DNA from: Eubacteriales bacterium | Lineage (GTDB): Bacteria > Bacillota > Clostridia > Oscillospirales > CAG-272 | DNA length: 24,811 bases | Reading direction: 5' to 3' | NCBI GenBank assembly: GCA_045576055.1 | Contig: JAZNFR010000187.1 | Location: 1-24,811, forward strand | Shown here: positions 4,887 to 20,174 of the stretch, piece by piece | Layout: the number at the start of each line of letters is the position of its first letter | Numbering within the stretch: the stretch's first letter is position 1 | Translations under genes and position numbers: made by a program | The notes under the pieces: generated by a model | Database searches by the model: none | What the model was told of the DNA's origin: nothing | Seen by the model: the letters and a program-made list of their open reading frames with translations, nothing else

Positions 4887-4928
4887 ATTATGAGAAGTAA
4901 TGTTTTTACGACATATGAGGTGAGATTT

Positions 4929-5294
4929 ATGGCTAAATACAGAAGAAATAGAATAAATGACGCAGTAAAAGAGGAGATGGCAATGATTTTACGCGACGTT
5001 AAGGACCCTAGAATTGCTGGTGCTTTGGTTTCAATAACTGGCGCTAATGTTTCTGGGGATTTAAAGTTCGCAAAAATATACTACTCCGTTTTGGGCTCTG
5101 ACCCAAAGGAGGTTGGCAAGGCTTTAAAGAATGCAAGTGGTTTTTTCCGTTCCGAGCTTGCCAGACGTATAAATTTAAGAATCACACCTGAGCTGTTTTT
5201 TGAGCATGACTCCTCAGCCGAGTATGGTGCAAACATTTCATCAATTTTAAAAACGCTTGATATCAAGCCTGACGACGAGGAAGAAAATGATTAA
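4929..5294 (+). CDS. rbfA: 30S ribosome-binding factor A
   Basis: RRNRINDAVKEE, VKDPRI, VSGDLKFAKIYYS, LRITPELFFEHDSS; start set at ATG 4929 after GAGGTGAG. Confidence 0.95.
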   Translation: MAKYRRNRINDAVKEEMAMILRDVKDPRIAGALVSITGANVSGDLKFAKIYYSVLGSDPKEVGKALKNASGFFRSELARRINLRITPELFFEHDSSAEYGANISSILKTLDIKPDDEEEND

Positions 5295-6276
5295 GGAAAT
5301 TTCATTAAACGAGCTGGCAAGTAAACTAAAAGAGGTTAAAAAAACTCTTATTCTTTGCCATAAGAATCCCGACCCGGACACGCTTGGCAGCGCTTTTGCT
5401 CTTAAGGAAATATTAAATTTTCTCGGCTCTTATGTTGATGTTGCTTGTTGTGATAACGCGCCCAAAAAATTCGATTTTATAACAGGCGGCGCTTCGCTTG
5501 AATATAAGGAAAATGGATACGAAAGATATATCGCTATTGATGTGGCATCACCTATGCAGCTTGGTGGACTATCATACCTTGCCGAAAATGTTGATATAAC
5601 TATAGACCACCACAAAATGTGCACTCGTTTTTCTGAATATTATGAAAATTTCAAGGCATCATGCGCTGAAAATGTTTATCTTCTTGCCGAGGAGCTTGGC
5701 GTTTTAGACGAGCTACCATTACAGTTTTATAATTGTCTTTACGCTGGAATGAGCGCTGACACAGGTGGATTTAGATATTCTAATGTAACACCTGAAACTA
5801 TGTCTCTTGCATCGTTAGTTATTGCTAGAGGAATCGACCACGCAGAAATCAACCGCATTATTTTTGATTCAAAATCACTTGAGGAAATCAAGGCGCAAAA
5901 GCTTACATACGAAAAAATGCAGCTCTTTTGTGATGGCTCTCTTTCCATCATTATGTTTACAAACAAAATGAAAGAGGAAAACGGTATATCCGATGCCGAT
6001 ATTGGCGATATTGTAAATTCAGTGCGCTCTGTCGAGGGTGTTTTAGTTGCAATTTCCTTAAAGCAACAAAAGGACGAAACAAAATACGCCTTGTCCTCAC
6101 GCGCAAACGCAGATATTGATGTTTCAAGGGTTTGTGTTGAGTTTGGCGGTGGCGGACACGTCCGCGCTGCTGGTGCAACAGTAGTTGCAAGCACACCAGA
6201 TGAAGCTGTAGAAATTGTTGCTTCCAAATTTGGTGAAGCAATCGAGGAATATAAAAAGGGTTTAAAAAATGGATAA
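5287..6276 (+). CDS. nrnA: DHH/DHHA1 phosphoesterase (NrnA-type oligoribonuclease/pAp phosphatase)
   Basis: HKNPDPDTLGS, IDHH, ADTGGFRY, GGGGHVRAAG motifs; usual position between rbfA and truB; start set at ATG 5287. Confidence 0.88.
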   Translation: MIKEISLNELASKLKEVKKTLILCHKNPDPDTLGSAFALKEILNFLGSYVDVACCDNAPKKFDFITGGASLEYKENGYERYIAIDVASPMQLGGLSYLAENVDITIDHHKMCTRFSEYYENFKASCAENVYLLAEELGVLDELPLQFYNCLYAGMSADTGGFRYSNVTPETMSLASLVIARGIDHAEINRIIFDSKSLEEIKAQKLTYEKMQLFCDGSLSIIMFTNKMKEENGISDADIGDIVNSVRSVEGVLVAISLKQQKDETKYALSSRANADIDVSRVCVEFGGGGHVRAAGATVVASTPDEAVEIVASKFGEAIEEYKKGLKNG

Positions 6277-7177
6277 GGAATTATCAGGGGTAATTCTTGT
6301 CAACAAGCACAAGGGTGTTACCTCGCACGATATAGTTTTCAAGATAAGACGGCTTTATGGCACGAAAAAGGTTGGCCACACAGGTACGCTTGACCCTCTC
6401 GCCACTGGCGTTTTGCCTGTTCTTGTGGGTAGAAGCGCAAAGGCAGCCGAATATCTACTTTCTGAAAACAAGAAATATGTTGCCGAAATTATGCTTGGTA
6501 TAACAACTGATACTGAAGATATTACAGGCAATATTCTTACAAAAACAGACACTCTCCCCGACAAAAAAGCTTTTTTTGAGGCTTGCAAGAAATTCACCGG
6601 TGAGATAATGCAGGTGCCACCTATGTATAGCGCCTTAAAGATTGAGGGCAAAAAGCTTGTTGACCTCGCACGTCAAGGCATAGAGGTTGAAAGACAAGCA
6701 AGAAAAATAACAATATTCTCTATTGAGCCTGAGGTTATAAGCGAAAGTGAAGGTGTATACAAATTGACCGTTTCCTGCTCCAAGGGTACATATATTCGTA
6801 CACTTTGTGCCGATATCGGTGCACACCTTGGATGCGGTGCTACGATGAGCGAGCTTATGCGTATTGAGTCTGGTGATTTCAAGCTTGAAAACGCACATAC
6901 CATAGACGAGCTAGAAAAAATGAGCTTTGAAGAAAGAGCCAAGCTTTTATTGCCACCCGAGGAGCTTTTTAAAGACGCAGAGGCTATTTCATTTAGTGAA
7001 TTTTACACAAGACTTTTCAAAAGTGGTTGTGAAATATATCAAAAGAAAATTGGAACTAGCTTTCCTTGTGGCACGTTTTTGCGTGTTTACGAAAACGACG
7101 AATTTATCGCACTTGCCGAGGTTAAGGATTTCACCGACGGCTCAGCTATAAAATCAATAAAATTTTTCAAAATTTGA
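6269..7177 (+). CDS. truB: tRNA pseudouridine(55) synthase
   Basis: NKHKGVTSHD, KVGHTGTLDPLATGVL, QVPPMYSALK, CSKGTYIRTL. Confidence 0.96.
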   Translation: MDKELSGVILVNKHKGVTSHDIVFKIRRLYGTKKVGHTGTLDPLATGVLPVLVGRSAKAAEYLLSENKKYVAEIMLGITTDTEDITGNILTKTDTLPDKKAFFEACKKFTGEIMQVPPMYSALKIEGKKLVDLARQGIEVERQARKITIFSIEPEVISESEGVYKLTVSCSKGTYIRTLCADIGAHLGCGATMSELMRIESGDFKLENAHTIDELEKMSFEERAKLLLPPEELFKDAEAISFSEFYTRLFKSGCEIYQKKIGTSFPCGTFLRVYENDEFIALAEVKDFTDGSAIKSIKFFKI

Positions 7178-7185
7178 GGTATATT

Positions 7186-8547
7186 ATGAAAATAATCAAG
7201 AATCCCGAGCAATTCCACTGCTGGGAGCACTATGCAGCGGAGCTTCCTGTTGAATACAATCAAAGCTATGAGGAAGGACTCGACATTGAGCCATATAAGG
7301 AGCTTATTTTTAACACCCACAAGCTTCCAGATGACGAATTTAAGGAAGAGGTTGCAGATGCAATTGCAAAGCTTGTAAACGAGCTACCTATAAGAGAGGG
7401 CTATAAATATAATGAGCCATCCGACCTTGAAGGAATAAGAGCGCTTCGTAATCTTAACCTAAAAACAGCTGATTCCCCTTCTGTTTCTCTTGAAAAGAAG
7501 ATTGAGGGTGCTTGGTACGGAAGAATTGCAGGATGCTTTCTTGGGAAGCCTGTTGAGGGGCTTTGGACAAAAACCCTGACAGCACTTTTAAAATCATCAA
7601 ACAACTACCCAATGCATAGATACATTTTAAGCACTGATGTAAATAGAGATGAGCTTGCGAAAATCGGTATTCAGCCTTGGCATTTATGCTCCAACTGCTA
7701 TGCAGATAAGGTTAAATTTGCAGAGGCAGATGACGACACAAACTACACAGTTATGGCACAGCTTATGATTGACCGTCGTGGCTCAACATTCACACCTAAA
7801 AATGTGCTTGAGACCTGGATGGATTGTCAACCAAAGAATGCATATTGCACAGCTGAAAGAGTTGCATATATGAACTTTTTAAAAAGCTATGTGCCACCAT
7901 ATACTGCATATTATAAAAACCCATACAGGGAGTGGATTGGCGCGCAAATTCGTGGCGACTACTATGGATATGTTGCAAAGGATTCTGAGCAAGCTGCTGA
8001 TTTTGCTTGGCGCGACGCCTCTATTTCTCATATCAAAAATGGCATTTATGGTGAAATGTTAATTTCCGCTATGCTTGCATATGCAAAAACAAGCGAAAAT
8101 ATTTTAAATGTAATTTATGCCGGACTTGCCGAAATCCCTCAAACCTCTCGTCTTTACGAGGAGGCTATGGAAATAATTAATGGGTATCTCAATGGTGCTA
8201 CTAAGGAAGAAGCCTTTGCCTCTATCCACGCAAAATACAACAACGAGAATTCCCACGACTGGTGCCATACTATTTCAAACGCACTTATTGTTATTTCTTC
8301 ACTTCTCTATGGTGAGGGCGATTTTGGAAAATCAATTTGTATGGCTGTTGAAACAGGCTTTGATACCGACTGCAATGGTGCAACTGTTGGCTCAATTGTT
8401 GGAATGATTTATGGCATTGACAATATCGACGAGAAATGGATAAAGCCATTTAACGGAGTTTTACAAACCCAAATCCTTGGCCACGACAAATCAACAATTG
8501 ATACGCTTGTAAAGAAAACTCTTGAGCATATTGAATGGTTTAAATAA
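7186..8547 (+). CDS. ADP-ribosylglycohydrolase family protein (DraG/ARH fold)
   Basis: GAWYGRIAGCFLGKPVEG, DDDTNYT, WIGAQIRGD, SHIKNGIYG, GFDTDCNGATVGS metal-binding motifs; start set at ATG 7186 after GAGGT. Confidence 0.88.
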   Translation: MKIIKNPEQFHCWEHYAAELPVEYNQSYEEGLDIEPYKELIFNTHKLPDDEFKEEVADAIAKLVNELPIREGYKYNEPSDLEGIRALRNLNLKTADSPSVSLEKKIEGAWYGRIAGCFLGKPVEGLWTKTLTALLKSSNNYPMHRYILSTDVNRDELAKIGIQPWHLCSNCYADKVKFAEADDDTNYTVMAQLMIDRRGSTFTPKNVLETWMDCQPKNAYCTAERVAYMNFLKSYVPPYTAYYKNPYREWIGAQIRGDYYGYVAKDSEQAADFAWRDASISHIKNGIYGEMLISAMLAYAKTSENILNVIYAGLAEIPQTSRLYEEAMEIINGYLNGATKEEAFASIHAKYNNENSHDWCHTISNALIVISSLLYGEGDFGKSICMAVETGFDTDCNGATVGSIVGMIYGIDNIDEKWIKPFNGVLQTQILGHDKSTIDTLVKKTLEHIEWFK

Positions 8548-8551
8548 ACAA

Positions 8552-8575
8552 AAAAGGACACTATTGTGTCCTTTT
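8552..8575. terminator. Bidirectional intrinsic terminator between convergent genes
   Basis: AAAAGGACAC-tatt-GTGTCCTTTT; overlaps the stop of the MmcQ/YjbR gene. Confidence 0.8.
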
Positions 8576-8947
8576 ATTTTTTCTTTTTTCTTTAGGCTTA
8601 GTTAAATTATAGCTAATTTCAAGCAGCCAAGCAACAGTGTCACTATCGCACATATCAAGAGCTACTGTTAGCCAATGGATTTTATTCATATGGTATGCTC
8701 GAAAGATACCCGACTCAATACCTGCTAGAGACTCAATAATTTCAGGTGCACATTTAAAATTGACCACATCTATTATTTTGTCATCCAAAAAGCCGATCTT
8801 ATTTCTTGGTATTTTCATGGCGATAGCAAACCATTTTTTGCTCGATTGATGCCTAAAAATACCTGTTTCAAAATCCTCATCAAATGGATAATCAGCTTTT
8901 GTTCCATATGCTTCAAGCACTAGGCTTTCAAATTCATTTCTTGTCAA
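8561..8947 (-). CDS. MmcQ/YjbR family protein
   Basis: DYPF, FRHQSSKKWFA, VNFKC, AYHMNKIHWLTV, LLEISYNLT; TTG start with GAGG RBS. Confidence 0.88.
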   Translation of the reverse strand: MTRNEFESLVLEAYGTKADYPFDEDFETGIFRHQSSKKWFAIAMKIPRNKIGFLDDKIIDVVNFKCAPEIIESLAGIESGIFRAYHMNKIHWLTVALDMCDSDTVAWLLEISYNLTKPKEKRKNKRTQ

Positions 8948-9026
8948 AGTTTTTTCCTCGTATTTTCTCGCAACGAACCCTCATCTTATAAGCCAAGATG
9001 TGTAACGTTTTCTTCCTTTAATAAAT

Positions 9027-9055
9027 ATTTTACTATAACATTGGTCACTAGTCAA
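9027..9055 (-). promoter_or_regulatory. sigmaA-type promoter for the MmcQ/YjbR gene
   Basis: Minus strand TTGACT (9055-9050), 17 bp, TAAAAT (9032-9027). Confidence 0.55.
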
Positions 9056-9091
9056 GAGAGATTAATTACCCTTGCGAGCAGAATCACCTTA

Positions 9092-9567
9092 GCCTCGTGT
9101 CCGAACCCCATTCGAAGCAATGCTTTGAAGAGGTGGTCGAGAGCTCTTCCTGCGCCACAAAAAAAGGACACCATTTTTGGTGTCCTTTGTGAAAATGCAA
9201 AAGAACACAAACGAGGGATACATTTTCTTATAAAAATGCACTTCGGCAAGCCTTATGCTAGCGAGCTGACAACGGCTTTTGCCTCGTGTCCGAACCCCAT
9301 TCAAAGCAAAGCTTTGAAGAGGTGGTCGAGAGCCCTTCCTGCGCCACAAAAAAAGGACACCATTTCTGGTGTCCTTTGTAAAAATGCAAAAGAACACAAA
9401 CGAGGGATGCATTTTCTTATAAAAATGCACTTCGGCAAGCCTTATGCTAGCGAGCTGACAACGGCTTTTGCCTCGTGTCCGAACCCCATTCAAAGCAAAG
9501 CTTTGAAGAGGTGGTCGAGAGCTTTTCCTGCGCCACAAAAAAAAGACACCATTTTTGGTGTCCTTTG
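9092..9567. repeat. 189-bp tandem repeat, about 2.5 copies, directly downstream of tRNA-Ser
   Basis: Units start at 9092, 9281 and 9470 (GCCTCGTGTCCGAACCCC...); units 1 and 2 differ at 6 of 189 positions by manual comparison; the third is truncated by the tRNA. Confidence 0.95.
9537..9566 (-). terminator. Intrinsic terminator of tRNA-Ser (repeated in each 189-bp unit)
   Basis: Minus strand GGACACC-AAAAAT-GGTGTCT followed by a T-tract (8 consecutive T) right after the CCA end. Confidence 0.85.
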
Positions 9568-9654
9568 TGGCGCAGGAAGAGGGATTCGAACCCCCGTGCC
9601 GTTAGGCAAACGGTTTTCAAGACCGCCTCGTTATGACCGCTTCGATATTCCTGC
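9568..9654 (-). tRNA. tRNA-Ser, anticodon TGA
   Basis: GCAGGAA TA TCGAAGCGGTCATAACGA G GCGGT CTTGAAA ACCGT TTGCCTAACGGCAC GGGGG TTCGAAT CCCTC TTCCTGC G CCA: 87 nt, 7-bp acceptor stem, class II variable arm, G73 discriminator, encoded CCA. Confidence 0.95.
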
Positions 9655-9700
9655 GTATTTAAATACACGGTTCTCTTTGCAAAATGTCTCGTGCTTAAGT

Positions 9701-9729
9701 ATAATATCACATTTTTTTTCGTCTGTCAA
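9701..9729 (-). promoter_or_regulatory. sigmaA-type promoter for tRNA-Ser
   Basis: Minus strand TTGACA (9729-9724), 17 bp, TATTAT (9706-9701) with TG motif. Confidence 0.75.
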
Positions 9730-9953
9730 TATTTTTTTGATTTTTCTTGAAAATATTTAAAATCCCTCGTTAATTGTTAATTTTTTGTTACGAAACTTAA
9801 AATTTATTCTTAACAAATTTCGATTTTTTTGTGCCGTTGAGCCCTTTTGCCATGGGGGTTTTGCCATTTTTCTTTCGACAAAAATCGTCTTTTTATTTTC
9901 GACTATATTCTTCCTTATTATATTATTTCTTACAAAATTAACATTTAAAACCA

Positions 9954-14987: not shown

Positions 14988-17900
14988 ATGAAAAGCACAC
15001 TAAGAAAAATTTCAATTTTTCTACTCGTTTTGATGCTATCTACTTTTTGCTTGATTGCTTGTGGTGCAAATAACATCACAACAGACACATCAACAAACAG
15101 TAGCTCTGACACCGAAACAGACTCATCCACTGCCCCTATTTTCTACGGGCTCGACCTTCGCGCAGACAAGACTAGCGCTCTTCGTCAAGACAAGATTAAT
15201 CTTCAAGCCGTTCTCGTTTACGGCGAAACCGAAGAACCTCTTTTTGAAGACGTTGAATACTACATTGTAGAAGGCGAACAACATGCAACACTTGATGGCT
15301 ATGTTCTTACTATTAAGGGCACAGCAGCTCATAACGGCATCATCAAGGTTCAAGCACGTGAAGGCGCGACCATTTCAAATATTCTTGAAATTAAGGTTTC
15401 TGTTCCAGCAACCGACCTTACAATTAGCGCAAATGGTGTTACAAACATTTTAGCTGGTCAAAACCAAATTATCAAAGCAGAAATCACACCACAAGGTGCT
15501 GAAAACAATGTTGTTTACACCATTACTGAAGGTGCAGAATATGCTGCATTTGATTCCAATGTATTAGAAGTTTCAAGTACTGCTCCAACAGGCGCTACTA
15601 TTAAGGTTAAGGCTTCCATTGGTGAGCTTGAAAGTAATGAGCTTACATTTACTGTAGGTTATCCTCTTGAGTCAATCGTTGCAACACTTGCTCCAACTAA
15701 CATCTTAGCAGGTGGCAATGCTCCTATCTCTGTTACATTGACTCCTTCTAACTCTACAAACGCTAACTACACTTGGGAATTTGTTGAAGGTGGCGACTAC
15801 GCTACTATCGTAAACAACATAGTAACTGTTAACGCTGATGCTCCTACTGGTGCTATCGTTAAATTCAAGGCTGTTTGTGGCGATGTTGAAAGCGACGTTC
15901 TATCATTTATCGTTGGTTATCCAATGAAGGACATTGATGTAACATTTGCAGCAACAAATATCGTTGCAGGCTTCAATGCTCCTATTTCAGTTACAACAAC
16001 ACCAAGCAACACTACAAGCGTTTACACTTGGGAATTTATCGAGGGTGGCGAGTATGCTACTATTGTAAATGGTATGGTAACTGTTAATGCTAACGCTCCT
16101 ACAGGTACTGTTGTTAAATTCAAGGCTGTTTGTGGCGAAATTGAAAGTAATGTATTTACATTTACTGTAGGTTATCCTATTGAATCAATCAACGCAACAT
16201 TTACAAAGCCTAACATTGAAGCAGGCGATAGCGCTTCTATTTCAGTTTCAACAACACCAAGCAACACTACAAGCGTTTACACTTGGGAATTCATCGAGGG
16301 TGGCGAGTATGCTACTATCGAAAACAACATAGTAACTGTTAACGACAACGCTCCTACAGGTGCTGTTGTTAAATTCCGTGCTGTTTGTGGAAAGATTTCA
16401 AGTAAGACATTTACATTTATTGTAGGTTATCCTCTTGAAGCTCTCAAGGTTGCTTTCTCAGCAACTAACATTATTGCAGGTGAAAGCGCTCCTATCTCTG
16501 TTACATTAACACCATCAAATGCAACAAATGGCGATTACACTTGGGAATTCATCGAGGGTGGCGATTATGCTTCTGTTATAAACGGCATGGTAACTGTTAA
16601 TGCTAACGCTCCTACAGGTACTGTTGTTAAATTCAAGGCAGTAGCTGGAAACATTTCAAGCGATGAATTATCATTCACAGTTGGATATCCTCTCTCCTCT
16701 ATTATAGCTACACTTGTTGGCTCATCCGCTAATATGGAGCCTGGCACAACTGCTCAGCTTGCAGCAAAGCTCAACCCAACTAACACAACAAATGGTGAAT
16801 ACACTTGGGAAATTATAGAAGGTAACGATTTTGTTACTCTTACAACAGCAAATGATGCAACATTAATCACAATCAAGTCCGAAACTCCTATCGGTTCAGT
16901 TGTAAAGATTGTTGCTAAGTCTACTGACGGCATGATTACAAGTAATGTTCTCACTATCGAGGTTGGTACTCCTATTGAATCTGTTGTTCTTTCTACAGAT
17001 GCACCAGCTATACTCGACCGCGATGGTACATACGAATTTACAGTGGCAGTAACACCAAACAACGCAAGTATGAATGCTCTTTCATGGATTGTTGACGAGG
17101 GTGCACAATATGCAACCTTCAAAAACGGCGTTCTCCATATTGCAAAGAACACTCCTGCAGGCACAAAGGTAACTGTTCACGTTGAAAGTGGTGAGGTAAA
17201 GAGTGACTCATTCACATTTACTGTTGGTATTCCACTTAATACTATTACACTCACATTAAATGCTACTAATGTAAACCCAGGTAGCTCCTGTGTTATCAAC
17301 TATGCTCTTGACCCAGAAAACGCTTCTGACCAAGATGTTAAATGGATTATAGAAAAGGGTGGCGAATATGCTACACTTAAAAACGGAATCTTAGCTGTTA
17401 ACGCTGATGCACCTGTTGGTGCAAAGGTAACATTCTATGCTCAAGTAGTTGATGTAAAGAGTGAACCTATCACAATTACTGTTGGTATTCCTCTTGAAGA
17501 TATCAAGATTGAGCTTAATGGTAATAAGAATGTAAACCCTGGCGCTTCCGCTCAAATCATCACTGAGTTTTTCCCAACAACTGCTACTAACCAAACAATT
17601 ACTTGGAAGTTTGTTAGTGGAGAAGAATATGCAAGCATCAGTGGTAACTTCATCACTGTTAAGGAAGGCACTCCTGTTGGAACAAAGATTAAATTCTACG
17701 CACAAATTGGTGAAATTACAAGTGATCCTATAGAAATTATCGCAGGTACTCCTCTTGAATCTATCACCATTGAGCTTGGCGAAACAAATATCAATCCTGG
17801 CGCATCTGCTCAAATCACAACTACATTCAATCCAACCAACGCTACTAACCAAACAATTACTTGGGTAGTTTCTGATGGTAAGGATTATGTAAGCATCTCT

Positions 17901-20174
17901 TCTACTGGTCTTATTACAGTTAACAAGAATGCTCCTATTGGCGAAACAGTAACATTCTATGCTATGGGTGCTGTTAAGAGTAATTCACTTACATTTACAA
18001 TAGGTGTTCCTGTTGAAGAAATCGTTATTGATACAATTAACTCCTCATCTACTATTGTTAAAGGCAACTCAGCTGCTCTCCTATTTGAAATAGGTCCTTC
18101 TGACGCAACCCAAACTACTGTAACATGGGAAATCACAGAGGGTAAGGAATTTGCTGAAATCAAGGGTAATAACCTTGTTGTAAATGCAAATGCTACAACA
18201 GGCGCTACAATTAAGGTAGTTGCTAAGGCTGGCGGAATAACAAGTAATGAGCTTACATTCACAGTTGGCGCAACTCAAGAAGAAATAAATGCTGTTAAAT
18301 ACATGCTTTCATTGAATGCAAACAACCTAACAATCGACAAATATGGTATGAAATCACCTGTTTTGATTGCTGAAGTAACAAACGCTAACTTTGAGACTGT
18401 TCTTGATGTTTCTATTGCATATGAAGTAGTTTCAGGTGGTGAATTCATTTCAATCACTCCTGACGGATTTAACTTCAGCTTCTCAGCACAAGGTCACGGT
18501 CAAGCAGTTATCAAGGTTTGGGTTGCTGGATATGAAAACACTGCTGAAACAGTTACAATTGATTCAATTGTTCCTCCAACATCAGTAGAGCTTACAGGTC
18601 CATTTGCTGAAAATCCAAAGCACGAATATTCATTCTCACTAATTGACCCAATCACAAAGGCTGAGGAATCACTTCCATTCGACGTACTACTAAAGGGAAC
18701 TGGTTCATTCTGCCAAGACGTTTTATACACATTCACAGATGAAAACGGTGTTTCCGGCGATTCTGTTGCTGTATATGCAGACGGAAAAATCACATTTAAG
18801 AAGACCGGAAAGATCAATCTTGAGGTACAATCAAATTCAGGAAGCTACACAGAGGCTCGCGTTCGTTACACCTTTGACATTAACGAGGGCTATAACGTAG
18901 AAACCTTTGAAGAATTCAGCTATGTTGTTGAACACACTAGTCATAAGGGCACACCTATTAATTTAGTTGTTCTTGATAGAGTTAAGGACTATGCTGGTTA
19001 TGATTATGGTTACGCACTTGTTCCATCAATCGCACTTGAGAACGCTCCCGCTGATCAAGAGCTCGCTCATTTACTTCGTTCTTACACAACTTACAACGGC
19101 AAGAGCATCAACATAAGAATTCAAGCTGTAAACTCCAGCTTATATGTAAATGGTAACAACACTATAATTGATGCATCTAAGGTTAAGGTATTCAACAAGC
19201 AAGAATACGATGCTTATGTTGAAGAATATGCTATTCCTGAATCTGATAGATTCTACAACTACTCTGCATTCTTATCAGTTGAGGCATGGCACAAGGACGG
19301 AATAGGAACAACCGACCCGAACGTTATTGGTCAGGATTACTTCATCAAGCTTTACGATATTGAGGTTAAGGGTAATGCGCCAATAGACTATAATCCAGCT
19401 GACCATGGTTATCCAGGCACTTCTGATAACCAAGCCTTCGTAGGTGCGTTTGGTGAAGGTATCAATATGGGTAGTCTTGCCTATAGTTGCCACTACTCAA
19501 TTGACGTTGACAACTTGACTGCTTCCGCATTCCATAATGGCTTGAAGTTCTCATCAATCGTTGGTAATGGTAATGTTTCTAACCTACATGTATACAACTG
19601 TTATTCAACTGGTATTGTTGCACGTTCAAGTATGCTAACCTTTGAAAACCTCGAAATTGGTCCTTGCGGCGCTACTGGTATAGAGCTTTCACAAGATGAC
19701 TATAACAAGGCAGGTTATAACGATAACGAAATTGCAAAGATTATCTTCAAGGGTAATGTTGAAGCATTAACTAACCTTAACAATGGTGAAACAAACTACT
19801 TTAAGAATTACTCAATCATGGGTGCTTCCGTTCCTCAAATAATCACTGGTAACACCCAACAGTACTCAGATAACCAAGTTTCACACTTCAGAAACGCAAA
19901 TGGTGAATTCATCTTCATTTGTCTATTGTTCAACAACTTCCAAACATTTGAATCAAACGGCACAATTGTTGAATATTCTGCATTTGAAGAGGGTGGCGGT
20001 ATTATAAATGCTGCAAATCTTCCAACAAGTGGAATAGACTACGAGCATCAGTTCATTATGATGGATATCTACGTTGACATCGCAGCACTTGGAGGAACTA
20101 CCAAGGTTGGTTCTGCCCTATTCTATAACCACTATTATGGAAAGGCTCCAGCAGCAACTGAAGTAGCTGAATAA
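14988..20174 (+). CDS. 1728-aa surface lipoprotein: lipobox, Ser/Thr linker, about 14 Ig-like repeats, C-terminal probable parallel beta-helix domain
   Basis: Lipobox LIAC (C25); linker TTDTSTNSSSDTETDSST; repeats ending F/I-T-V-G-x-P; head from residue about 1302 (YNVETFEEF...YVNGNNTIIDAS...NLHVYNCYSTGIV...ENLEIGPCGATGIEL); AAGGAG RBS. Confidence 0.85.
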   Translation: MKSTLRKISIFLLVLMLSTFCLIACGANNITTDTSTNSSSDTETDSSTAPIFYGLDLRADKTSALRQDKINLQAVLVYGETEEPLFEDVEYYIVEGEQHATLDGYVLTIKGTAAHNGIIKVQAREGATISNILEIKVSVPATDLTISANGVTNILAGQNQIIKAEITPQGAENNVVYTITEGAEYAAFDSNVLEVSSTAPTGATIKVKASIGELESNELTFTVGYPLESIVATLAPTNILAGGNAPISVTLTPSNSTNANYTWEFVEGGDYATIVNNIVTVNADAPTGAIVKFKAVCGDVESDVLSFIVGYPMKDIDVTFAATNIVAGFNAPISVTTTPSNTTSVYTWEFIEGGEYATIVNGMVTVNANAPTGTVVKFKAVCGEIESNVFTFTVGYPIESINATFTKPNIEAGDSASISVSTTPSNTTSVYTWEFIEGGEYATIENNIVTVNDNAPTGAVVKFRAVCGKISSKTFTFIVGYPLEALKVAFSATNIIAGESAPISVTLTPSNATNGDYTWEFIEGGDYASVINGMVTVNANAPTGTVVKFKAVAGNISSDELSFTVGYPLSSIIATLVGSSANMEPGTTAQLAAKLNPTNTTNGEYTWEIIEGNDFVTLTTANDATLITIKSETPIGSVVKIVAKSTDGMITSNVLTIEVGTPIESVVLSTDAPAILDRDGTYEFTVAVTPNNASMNALSWIVDEGAQYATFKNGVLHIAKNTPAGTKVTVHVESGEVKSDSFTFTVGIPLNTITLTLNATNVNPGSSCVINYALDPENASDQDVKWIIEKGGEYATLKNGILAVNADAPVGAKVTFYAQVVDVKSEPITITVGIPLEDIKIELNGNKNVNPGASAQIITEFFPTTATNQTITWKFVSGEEYASISGNFITVKEGTPVGTKIKFYAQIGEITSDPIEIIAGTPLESITIELGETNINPGASAQITTTFNPTNATNQTITWVVSDGKDYVSISSTGLITVNKNAPIGETVTFYAMGAVKSNSLTFTIGVPVEEIVIDTINSSSTIVKGNSAALLFEIGPSDATQTTVTWEITEGKEFAEIKGNNLVVNANATTGATIKVVAKAGGITSNELTFTVGATQEEINAVKYMLSLNANNLTIDKYGMKSPVLIAEVTNANFETVLDVSIAYEVVSGGEFISITPDGFNFSFSAQGHGQAVIKVWVAGYENTAETVTIDSIVPPTSVELTGPFAENPKHEYSFSLIDPITKAEESLPFDVLLKGTGSFCQDVLYTFTDENGVSGDSVAVYADGKITFKKTGKINLEVQSNSGSYTEARVRYTFDINEGYNVETFEEFSYVVEHTSHKGTPINLVVLDRVKDYAGYDYGYALVPSIALENAPADQELAHLLRSYTTYNGKSINIRIQAVNSSLYVNGNNTIIDASKVKVFNKQEYDAYVEEYAIPESDRFYNYSAFLSVEAWHKDGIGTTDPNVIGQDYFIKLYDIEVKGNAPIDYNPADHGYPGTSDNQAFVGAFGEGINMGSLAYSCHYSIDVDNLTASAFHNGLKFSSIVGNGNVSNLHVYNCYSTGIVARSSMLTFENLEIGPCGATGIELSQDDYNKAGYNDNEIAKIIFKGNVEALTNLNNGETNYFKNYSIMGASVPQIITGNTQQYSDNQVSHFRNANGEFIFICLLFNNFQTFESNGTIVEYSAFEEGGGIINAANLPTSGIDYEHQFIMMDIYVDIAALGGTTKVGSALFYNHYYGKAPAATEVAE
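15138..18275 (+). repeat. 12 tandem about 85-94-aa Ig-like repeats inside the large lipoprotein (two more divergent units follow to about 18890)
   Basis: Recurrent pattern P-x-N-x-T...YTWE-x-x-EG-x-x-YA...V-x-x-NAP-x-G...S-x-x-L-T-F-T-V-G-x-P. Confidence 0.9.

Follow-up and report, generated by a model that had tools for sequence, protein, structure and literature searches.

What is the structured tandem array that follows a tRNA-Ser gene in a member of the Clostridia, and how did it come to lie there? The array is located in a stretch of 24,811 nucleotides from Eubacteriales bacterium (GenBank assembly GCA_045576055.1, contig JAZNFR010000187.1, positions 1 to 24,811), which was analysed as a whole and is called the window in the following. 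An earlier note, made from the letters alone, had described a 189-bp repeat behind tRNA-Ser(UGA) with inverted copies of the tRNA 3' end and stacked terminators. We find that the array arose by recent tandem amplification of a single module, whose oldest copy, at the distal side, is decaying, and that this module belongs to an apparently undescribed family which is found behind many different tRNA genes and has kept a folded core. Our favoured reading, held with about even confidence, is that of a site-directed insertion module without genes, or what remains of it, which was amplified at this locus by tandem duplication.

The array behind tRNA-Ser(UGA)

The source assembly is a fragmented metagenome-assembled genome (MAG) of 1.58 Mb in 320 contigs with a completeness of 71%, the window being its contig C187. 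Tandem Repeats Finder reported a period of 189 bp with 2.5 copies and 96% matches at positions 9092-9568, which reproduces the array as first described. The six differences counted earlier between the units 9092-9280 and 9281-9469 were found again (at 9114, 9121, 9145, 9177, 9191 and 9220), and over the whole array the units differ from each other at 6-11 positions. The last 14 nt of the tRNA, which is encoded on the minus strand, are CTCTTCCTGCGCCA. Plus-strand matches to this sequence were confirmed at 9144-9157 (14/14), 9333-9346 (13/14) and 9522-9535 (13/14), and because plus-strand pieces match the end of a minus-strand tRNA these are inverted copies of its tail. Three terminator-like hairpins with T tracts are present, exclusively on the tRNA strand (Table 1), and the one closest to the tRNA forms one long palindrome together with 9522-9536 and the tRNA end. 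The hairpins TTCAAAGC/GCTTTGAA and TGCATTTT/AAAATGCA, here named P_a and P_d, and the T-arm-like sequence GGGGTTCGGA were also recovered in the array units. Two structural hints of the earlier note did not stand. The proposed pairing of CGAGG with CCTCG is not conserved in the family, where CACGAGGCAA pairs with TTGCCGAAGTG instead (helix P_b), and the swaps to G-U pairs between the units are too few to show anything.

The array extends beyond the limit given before, as a fourth, degenerate core at 9011-9091 adjoins the promoter of yjbR. It comprises two full copies that are 97% alike, a part copy fused to the tRNA's own tail and this old degenerate copy. The T loop and 3' end of tRNA-Ser(UGA) are the template for all arms of these copies. 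A direct copy of the tRNA is reduced to 7 nt (ATCCCTC) in the units of the window, at 9402-9408 and 9213-9219, and the 3' acceptor strand is wholly absent from these module copies. A consensus scan revealed no promoter-like site inside the array units. Two open reading frames (ORFs) crossing the repeats and the tRNA, 9041-9760 (+) and 9089-9538 (-), gave no Pfam match above the cut-off and are therefore taken as spurious. In two metatranscriptome and two metagenome runs nothing but the conserved tRNA itself was covered, apart from two short DNA contigs of relatives at 9388-9598 and 9180-9330, and the RNA runs listed in a search of public data had small shares at most.

Range of the family and placement behind tRNA genes

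A BLAST search with one unit gave partial matches in 30 of 36 genomes from its own genus, adjoining tRNA genes of many kinds. From an alignment of 35 copies (A1) a covariance model of the conserved part of the unit was built, named R1. It finds 9 copies at 7 loci in the source genome; across the genus, 48 of 50 genomes have matches, about 400 in total and at most 17 in any one genome, and this recurrence makes the array more than a chance repeat. R1 had no match in 150 genomes of the order (seven sister genera and 143 other genomes) or in 150 genomes sampled across the class. An exact scan with the 25-nt heart of the core over 185,579 species, each represented by one genome, yielded 62 stretches, all from MAGs labelled Clostridia, Eubacteriales or Oscillospiraceae and obtained from goat, deer and other animal hindguts. 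Judged from these searches, the family appears to be restricted to one genus of uncultured gut Clostridia.

The earlier note had left room for a known family. In Rfam 15 at the gathering score only the tRNA itself matches in the window, and at E values up to 10 the region 9000-9700 gave merely sub-threshold chance matches. BLAST searches of the module against phage and plasmid collections found nothing, and we found no description of such gene-less modules behind tRNA genes in the literature. The unit of the family is a module of about 135-190 nt, in which no meaningful ORFs were found; the 189-bp period of the window is merely its local tandem amplification. Tandem arrays of the family occur in many independent assemblies (L007, L038, L054, L059, L062, L083, L087), and many copies are situated at contig ends. 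Both tRNA-Pro genes of the source genome (C224/L110, C293/L113) are followed by R1-like modules with a variant hairpin of the GGGAGCTCGCTCAC type. As these were missed by R1 at an E value of 0.001, the family is wider than the counts given here.

A tRNA or tmRNA gene lies on the same strand within 1.5 kb upstream in 107 of 162 distinct copies. These 107 comprise 66 first units, at a median distance of 45 nt past the tRNA, and 41 later tandem units. Thirteen tRNA species are used, namely Arg (ACG, CCT), Gln (CTG, TTG), Glu (CTC, TTC), Ser (TGA, GGA, GCT, CGA), Leu (GAG), Met (CAT) and Tyr (GTA), and tmRNA additionally. The repeat thus follows many other tRNAs, in the source genome as well as in its relatives. 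Most copies without an intact tRNA come after a tRNA remnant ending in CCA, and several of these remnants are attR copies of prophages. The sole match in a viral contig (L095) is host flank of a provirus, in which a tyrosine integrase occupies the end away from the module; next to the other end come a copy of the tRNA-Ser(GGA) tail, a terminator and the module. Integrases of this family adjoin tRNA-Ser(GGA), Pro, Leu and His in ten genomes.

The provirus L095 is one of a family of prophages of about 37 kb (L095, L096-L106), in which a 358-aa tyrosine integrase is convergent with tRNA-Ser(GGA), Pro(TGG), Leu(CAG) or His. These prophages have arm repeats of the TAGTCACAAAA type at both ends, and their attR copy begins in the T loop. 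A further insert of about 110 nt, starting with GTAGCCGTTAAAAAACC and unrelated to R1, was observed at C171:11693-11940 (L114) as well as at L009, L020 and L094. This type B insert, located where the T loop would be in a partial copy of tRNA-Arg(ACG) or tRNA-Ser, separates the tRNA from the R1 module. It carries its own terminator, closes with the complete tRNA tail as a direct copy and has no Rfam match. Other inserts of 110-350 nt, bounded by a direct tRNA-tail copy of 12-23 nt and likewise without Rfam match, follow tRNA-Arg(CCG) (C84/L109), Asn (C118/L111), Ser(GCT) (C105/L112) and Glu(CTC) (C316/L115) and look like further module families of the source genome.

Anatomy of the module and its arms

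Read in tRNA direction, the first unit starts with the tRNA tail and its CCA, followed by a terminator whose stem often extends into the tail. Next comes the inverted tail copy, that is the acceptor strand and then a degenerate inverted T arm with the consensus GATTCGAMC. Hairpin P_a, a T-stem-like stretch of 4-5 nt and the tetranucleotide T(T/G)CG lead over to the core, the conserved motif in front of it being GGGT(T/G)CG. The core comprises 75-100 nt with three helices and a nearly invariant hairpin tip AG-CTYG-CT. Behind it follow the variable hairpin P_d and a direct tRNA copy which begins in the T loop. The conserved part of the module consists of the P_a hairpin and the core lodged in the T loop. 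In fresh copies the direct copy continues through acceptor strand, CCA and a second, different terminator; in older ones, those of the window included, the T-stem strand (ATCCCTC) alone remains.

The direct copy begins at tRNA nucleotides 57-61 in 52 of 79 units, most commonly at nucleotide 59, so that the core takes the place of A58 to nucleotide 60 of the T loop. Of 110 copies, all 110 have the T and the C of T(T/G)CG and 107 have the G, and the motif is kept even behind tRNA-Tyr, whose own loop reads TCCG. Since it is fixed regardless of the local loop, this left flank belongs to the conserved module. The arms follow the local tRNA and not a family consensus: antisense runs of at least 12 nt occur in 12 of 75 local tRNA pairs compared with 1 of 750 non-local ones, and direct runs of at least 10 nt (10-20 nt, some with CCA and terminator) in 26 of 75 compared with 5 of 750. 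Among mismatches of the inverted arm, G-U (26) and A-C (25) are equally frequent. The inverted arm is thus a neutrally decaying copy and not a conserved functional feature, and it carries no signal of an RNA strand.

A small palindromic repeat (GGGGTCCTCAAAA ... TTTTGGGGTTC) is scattered in the genomes of L057 (964-1149), L020, L032 and L085, and in L057 and L085 it sits inside the hairpin tip of the R1 core. Two short GC-rich, hairpin-forming repeats were seen near modules (C51, C316, C171; L011, L075), with the sequences GGGACGTCGAGGCGCC..CCCCTACA and AATCCCTCCGTC...CCTCCCTTT.CAAAGGAGGC.

Conservation of the fold

The conserved part folds into four helices, which are P_a, the long-range stem P_b in two parts, P_c and the hairpin with the CTYG loop. 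Covariation in these helices is strong. In A1, 91.6% of the cells are paired, compared with 74.9% after shuffling and 28-39% after sliding, and changes on both sides were found in 18 of 22 pairs. For 83 further copies (A3), whose alignment was fitted to the R1 model and thereby favours the structure, 91.9% are paired compared with 71.8% for shuffled alignments, and 20 of 22 pairs are compensatory. With A1 and A3 taken together, sliding leaves a paired fraction of 28-46%. The P_d hairpin can be formed in 95% of the copies and in 52% of shuffles. Conserved nucleotides reside in loops and junctions (AAA, GU/UAA, CUYG). G-U pairs (70) are in modest excess over A-C mismatches (42) in the core helices, if one invariant U-G pair is excluded. 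The tRNA-sense strand is the more stable one in 70 copies and the opposite strand in 39, by 1.8 kcal/mol on average, with a p-value that overstates the significance because the copies are related. For a T-stem closing the core, support does not exceed chance (32% with the own and 27% with swapped 5' strands), and z-scores of single-sequence folding are weak (-1.67 and -1.24). All helices could form equally in single-stranded DNA.

Junctions and turnover

Four loci (L076, L094, L056, L022), from no fewer than four species, have the core 5' of tRNA-Ser and on the antisense strand. The scaffold has the same build as behind tRNA genes, with inverted and direct copies which here derive from the tRNA 5' end plus 12 nt of flank. 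The real gene end is followed by a perfect palindromic turn 12 nt into the flank, the inverted copy, P_a and a split direct copy, which is interrupted by the core at GCTTCG^ATATTCC. This site resembles the GGTTCG^A(A/T)TCC of T loops, and at the tRNA-Ser gene of the window it is empty. As the core lies antisense to the tRNA at a T-loop-like motif, its orientation follows the DNA motif and not transcription, and because the arms contain flank that is not tRNA they must be copied from local DNA. The promoter of tRNA-Ser lies beyond the module at these loci, which places the module's antisense strand within the tRNA leader.

Comparison of orthologous loci revealed one indel with an exact position. 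L075 has 138 extra nucleotides compared with L032, which directly follow GGTTC(G) and directly precede the first base of the older core present in L032, and the breakpoints share 1 nt only. Of all indications of a precise event at the TTCG^ junction this one is the strongest, and it shows that the newer material lies closer to the tRNA. Core identity is at most 86% between different tRNA species and 92-99% for tandem or orthologous copies. The subfamily in first position behind tRNA-Arg(ACG) differs between species.

Insertion module, RNA or scar

According to the reading as a gene-less, site-directed insertion module, the conserved part (P_a, T(T/G)CG, core and P_d) would enter by a site-directed DNA reaction at the T-loop-like sequence TTCG^A(A/T)T, and the tRNA would stay intact, accompanied by a displaced and interrupted tail copy. 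At or soon after entry the arms would be copied from the local target, and they would then be free to decay. Further material would be added at the same TTCG^ junction, and unequal recombination between units would make arrays longer or shorter. On both flanks of the core, the uninterrupted target has its complement in the inverted arm. On a single strand, arm and flanks would thus form a duplex of the tRNA tail from which the core bulges at the junction, with the terminator and P_a as the two tips. In favour of this reading are the genus-restricted family and its position behind tRNA genes, the arms that follow the local tRNA, the fixed junctions, an orientation set by the target motif, the exact indel of L075, the neutral decay of the arm, the units without promoter and with flanking terminators, and the prophages that integrate at the same tRNA tails. 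Architecture, family, fold, junction positions, orientation, arm decay and this one presence/absence event are observed; the insertion itself and an enzyme that performs it are inferred, and the reacting form may be single-stranded DNA. We consider it unlikely that the modules are still working members of an undescribed class of gene-less mobile modules, which would integrate as folded nucleic acid at tRNA and tmRNA T loops and look-alike motifs, with the arm pairing across the junction and the gene tail being rebuilt on entry. Such pairing would either provide a splint or guide or imitate the double-stranded target.

Several results weigh against an insertion module. No recent jump between tRNA species was detected at an identity of at least 88%, and as the cores are at most 86% alike across tRNA species, most copies appear to have been passed on vertically. 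Of three other large orthologous indels, two fall within repeated stretches and are therefore explained by plain unequal recombination. The fold of core and P_a has been kept through many compensatory changes across species, with the adjacent terminators scrambled, and this suggests continuing selection or a present function, which a dead insertion does not need. No enzyme is tied to the family. Y1 transposases (PF01797) occur in only 23 of 50 genomes, with none in several module-rich genomes (G028, G001, G003, G021), and no longer element sharing the module ends was found, all R1 matches being full length. To our knowledge, no mechanism produces three copies in direct, inverted and again direct order and places a conserved hairpin where the second turn lies. 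In the attL regions of ten genomes, neither a module nor an inverted arm is located between tRNA and integrase.

Integrases using tRNA tails are active in the genus; as their integrase-proximal attL regions lack the module, it is not part of the prophages, and a phage-borne origin was rejected for this reason. The Y1 transposase was also rejected as partner enzyme, as its distribution over the genomes does not match that of the modules. A weak Y1 transposase domain (61 bits) was recognised in an ORF of 261 aa, situated about 1.1 kb past a three-unit R1 array (G071:C11:82169-82501); similar ORFs are present in 8 genomes of the genus, and its nearness to the array may be chance.

The insertion module was weighed against three other explanations, of which a structured non-coding RNA family, with the array as three gene copies, is the most serious one, although we regard it as rather unlikely. 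The RNA would be made by read-through from the tRNA promoter, the 5' arm and the 3' tail copy would form a minihelix resembling acceptor and T stem and ending in CCA, P_a and the core would emerge at nucleotides 58-60 of the T loop, and the transcript, processed by tRNA enzymes, would act by mimicking tRNAs, as a sponge or by binding proteins. In its favour are the four to five helices with the strong covariation described above, the P_d hairpin, the conserved nucleotides of loops and junctions, the better folding of the sense strand and the G-U excess in the core. Fresh units terminate in tRNA tail, CCA and terminator, T(T/G)CG-N-A retains the T-loop motif, and the position of the insert matches nucleotides 59-60, which bulge out of the T loop in tRNA structures. 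However, no unit contains a promoter-like site and a strong terminator precedes each of them, so that units 2 and 3 would be nearly silent as RNA genes. The 5' copies at tRNA-Ser are antisense to the sole evident promoter and conserved in at least four species, the acceptor-like arm decays neutrally, the copies of the window lack any 3' acceptor strand, the T stem closing the core is not beyond chance, and there is no Rfam match at E values up to 10. The RNA family retains a considerable minor share of our confidence because the fold has been kept in different species, which hints that it serves a function today. Of the interpretations offered in the earlier note, a repeat family associated with tRNAs and a non-autonomous element tied to tRNA ends have held; the small-RNA family is not supported, given units without promoter, walled off by terminators, and antisense copies in tRNA-Ser leaders.

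Passive attL/attR scars, left by repeated integration and excision of larger integrase-bearing elements such as prophages or islands at T loops, are a less probable source of the modules. The core would then be the surviving arm of a widespread element, comparable to a cis-mobilizable element (CIME), and the inverted arm would have arisen by palindrome-driven template switching. That direct tail copies begin in the T loop, that tyrosine-integrase prophages of the genus use the same tRNA tails and leave such copies, and that unrelated inserts with a direct tRNA-end copy exist at Arg-CCG (C84), Asn (C118) and Ser-GCT (C105) are all consistent with such scars. However, integrase families have one or few targets, whereas tmRNA and 13 tRNA species share this core. 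The junctions show no duplication of an overlap region, with TTCG on the left and AT on the right only; the phage arms beside attL and attR are unlike the core and not matched by R1, and compensatory changes that keep hairpins are unexpected for double-stranded arm sites. It is very improbable that the array is an assembly artefact or a chance repeat. The MAG is fragmented, as stated above, and public contigs did not span the array, which leaves the copy number of 2.5 without independent confirmation. Nevertheless, the units differ at 6-11 positions, and arrays of the family are present in many independent assemblies, with about 400 copies in 48 genomes.

If the module is mobile, it points to a targeting principle that combines a T-loop motif with a target-complementary arm, and to an undiscovered enzyme; it would also explain breaks of MAG assemblies at tRNA loci. 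If the modules are RNAs, they represent a new RNA family derived from tRNA tails with 10-17 paralogues per genome. In either case they offer a ready marker for an uncultured genus of the ruminant gut and a caution to annotators who read partial tRNA copies as plain att scars.

Comparison with known systems

The tails of tRNA genes are classic landing sites for prophages and islands. Elements that integrate at the T-loop sublocation of tRNA or tmRNA genes leave partial tRNA duplications (attL/attR), and CIMEs are derivatives of such elements without integrase. We know of no integrase system that serves at least 13 tRNAs with one conserved core. Stacked partial tRNA duplications were reported for the tycheposon islands of Prochlorococcus (bioRxiv 10.1101/2020.12.28.424599). 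The modules share with att duplications and CIMEs the location on the 3' side of tRNA or tmRNA, the intact gene, the displaced direct tail from the T loop, the stacking of units with older ones further from the gene, and the lack of an integrase inside; direct tRNA 3' repeats start at the crossover sublocation in 52 of 79 units. In contrast to these they are only 135-190 bp long and carry no gene, have one folded core for at least 13 tRNA species, an extra inverted target copy and a conserved hairpin, show no duplicated overlap, and occur with their core also at the T-loop-like motif antisense at the tRNA 5' end. The prophage ends at tRNA-Ser(GGA) and tRNA-Pro are unlike the core, in agreement with the blank searches of phage and plasmid collections.

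Folded single-stranded attachment sites are known from integrons (attC). In the case of CTXphi, a folded attP(+) hairpin is used by XerCD, and integration is irreversible and depends on tandem copies (PMC4246890). Similar to attP(+) and attC, the modules have two inverted target-like stretches that could pair as a mimic of the double-stranded target, with the reacting point then at a bulge, and as in those systems tandem copies are typical and structure is conserved above sequence. The likeness is one of geometry only, as the modules have no linked single-stranded replicon, Rep protein or recombinase and their target would be the T loop of a tRNA instead of dif or attI. Unlike CTXphi and attC, the module cannot simply import its inverted arm, which agrees with the local tRNA in each case.

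The earlier note had pointed to the tyrT locus of E. coli, which reportedly contains 178-bp repeats in 3.14 copies, each with a 3' fragment of tRNA-Tyr, and gives rise to rtT RNA. Common features are a tandem array right behind a tRNA, a period near 180 bp and a tRNA 3' fragment per unit. The fragment is direct in tyrT, whereas only 7 nt of a direct one are left in the window; the comparison holds only for those relatives in which the direct copy of the tRNA end is complete. While tyrT is a single locus, the module family counts hundreds of copies spread over many tRNAs, has an inverted arm and a conserved, folded core at the T loop, and provides every unit with a terminator. A purely local duplication would not recur about 400 times in 48 genomes next to tmRNA and 13 different tRNA species.

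Short repeats such as REP/BIME, Correia, BOX and RUP elements, miniature inverted-repeat transposable elements (MITEs) and palindrome-associated elements derived from IS200/IS605 form another group for comparison. Like REP/BIME, Correia, BOX and RUP, the modules are gene-less, hairpin-rich, multi-copy, intergenic and restricted to a genus. Like IS200/IS605 elements, they have a fixed short left flank, the tetranucleotide T(T/G)CG, hairpins at two ends (P_b/core and P_d), no target duplication, and a new copy at the flank of an old one; however, no Y1 (HUH) transposase element with matching end hairpins was found in the genomes of the genus. Unlike MITEs and other small repeats, the modules do not share terminal inverted repeats, their arms being copies of the local target, and they are located almost exclusively at the ends of tRNA-like genes. 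No autonomous partner with the same ends was found, and there is no short target-site duplication at TTCG / AT.

RNAs that mimic tRNAs include the tRNA-like domain of tmRNA, YrlA and Y RNAs and viral tRNA-like structures. The modules resemble them in the acceptor-like helix with CCA of fresh copies and in the retained T(T/G)CG-N-A. They differ by the missing Rfam match and own promoter, a T loop split by 75-100 nt and an unconserved acceptor arm. With structured RNA genes in general the modules share a conserved secondary structure with compensatory changes, but they have neither a promoter of their own nor a fixed orientation to one (the 5' copies at tRNA-Ser are antisense). Further likenesses of the core, to group II intron domain V, kink turns (K-turns) and hammerhead or other small ribozymes as well as to cre/parS/dif, rolling-circle replication (RCR) origins (CTTG^ATA) and a 9-nt match to 16S rRNA, were considered and dropped as unsupported.

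Features of the window

The coordinates of the array and its surroundings are listed in Table 1.

Table 1. Positions of the tRNA gene, the module copies with their parts and the adjacent features in the window
Feature	Position	Strand	Evidence or remark
tRNA-Ser promoter, TTGACA-17-TATTAT with TG	9701-9729	-	consensus scan, 11/12
tRNA-Ser(UGA), intact	9568-9654	-	ARAGORN; Rfam tRNA 53.9 bits
Terminator 1 (hairpin and T tract)	9541-9566	-	immediately 3' of tRNA
Module copy closest to tRNA	9393-9528	-	R1 122.4 bits
Closest copy, inverted arm	9522-9536		
Closest copy, degenerate inverted T arm	9508-9522		
Closest copy, P_a	9489-9507		conserved part
Closest copy, GGGGTTCG	9480-9488		conserved part
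Closest copy, core with P_b/P_c	9429-9479		27-nt hairpin block 9439-9465
Closest copy, P_d	9409-9428		conserved part
Closest copy, direct T-stem ATCCCTC	9402-9408		
Terminator 2	9352-9377	-	duplicate of terminator 1
Second module copy	9204-9339	-	R1 122.2 bits; core 99% identical to closest copy
Second copy, arm	9333-9347		
Second copy, P_a	9300-9318		
Second copy, GGGGTTCG	9291-9299		
Second copy, core	9240-9290		27-nt block 9250-9276
Second copy, P_d	9220-9239		
Second copy, ATCCCTC	9213-9219		
Terminator 3	9163-9188	-	
Distal, oldest module copy	9011-9150	-	R1 27.7 bits, E 6e-4
Distal copy, arm	9144-9158		intact, 14/14
Distal copy, P_a	9111-9129		intact
Distal copy, GGGGTTCG	9102-9110		intact
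Distal copy, core	9070-9094		degenerate, running into yjbR promoter region
Promoter of next gene, TTGACT-17-TAAAAT	9027-9055	-	distal limit of array
YjbR family gene	8561-8947	-	next after array

Just upstream of the array region, a tight row of genes is located at 4890-8547 (+), comprising rbfA, a DHH/DHHA1 protein, truB and a gene of the ADP-ribosylglycohydrolase family. A second tandem repeat of the window, with a period of 255 bp and 3.4 copies that are 77% alike, was observed at 15768-16639 inside the ORF 14988-20174 (+). It encodes Big_2 immunoglobulin-like domains of a surface-type protein of 1728 aa. The preceding ORF of 316 aa contains Big_2 domains, too, and itself follows an ABC ATPase/permease pair and a membrane protein of the TMEM164 family.

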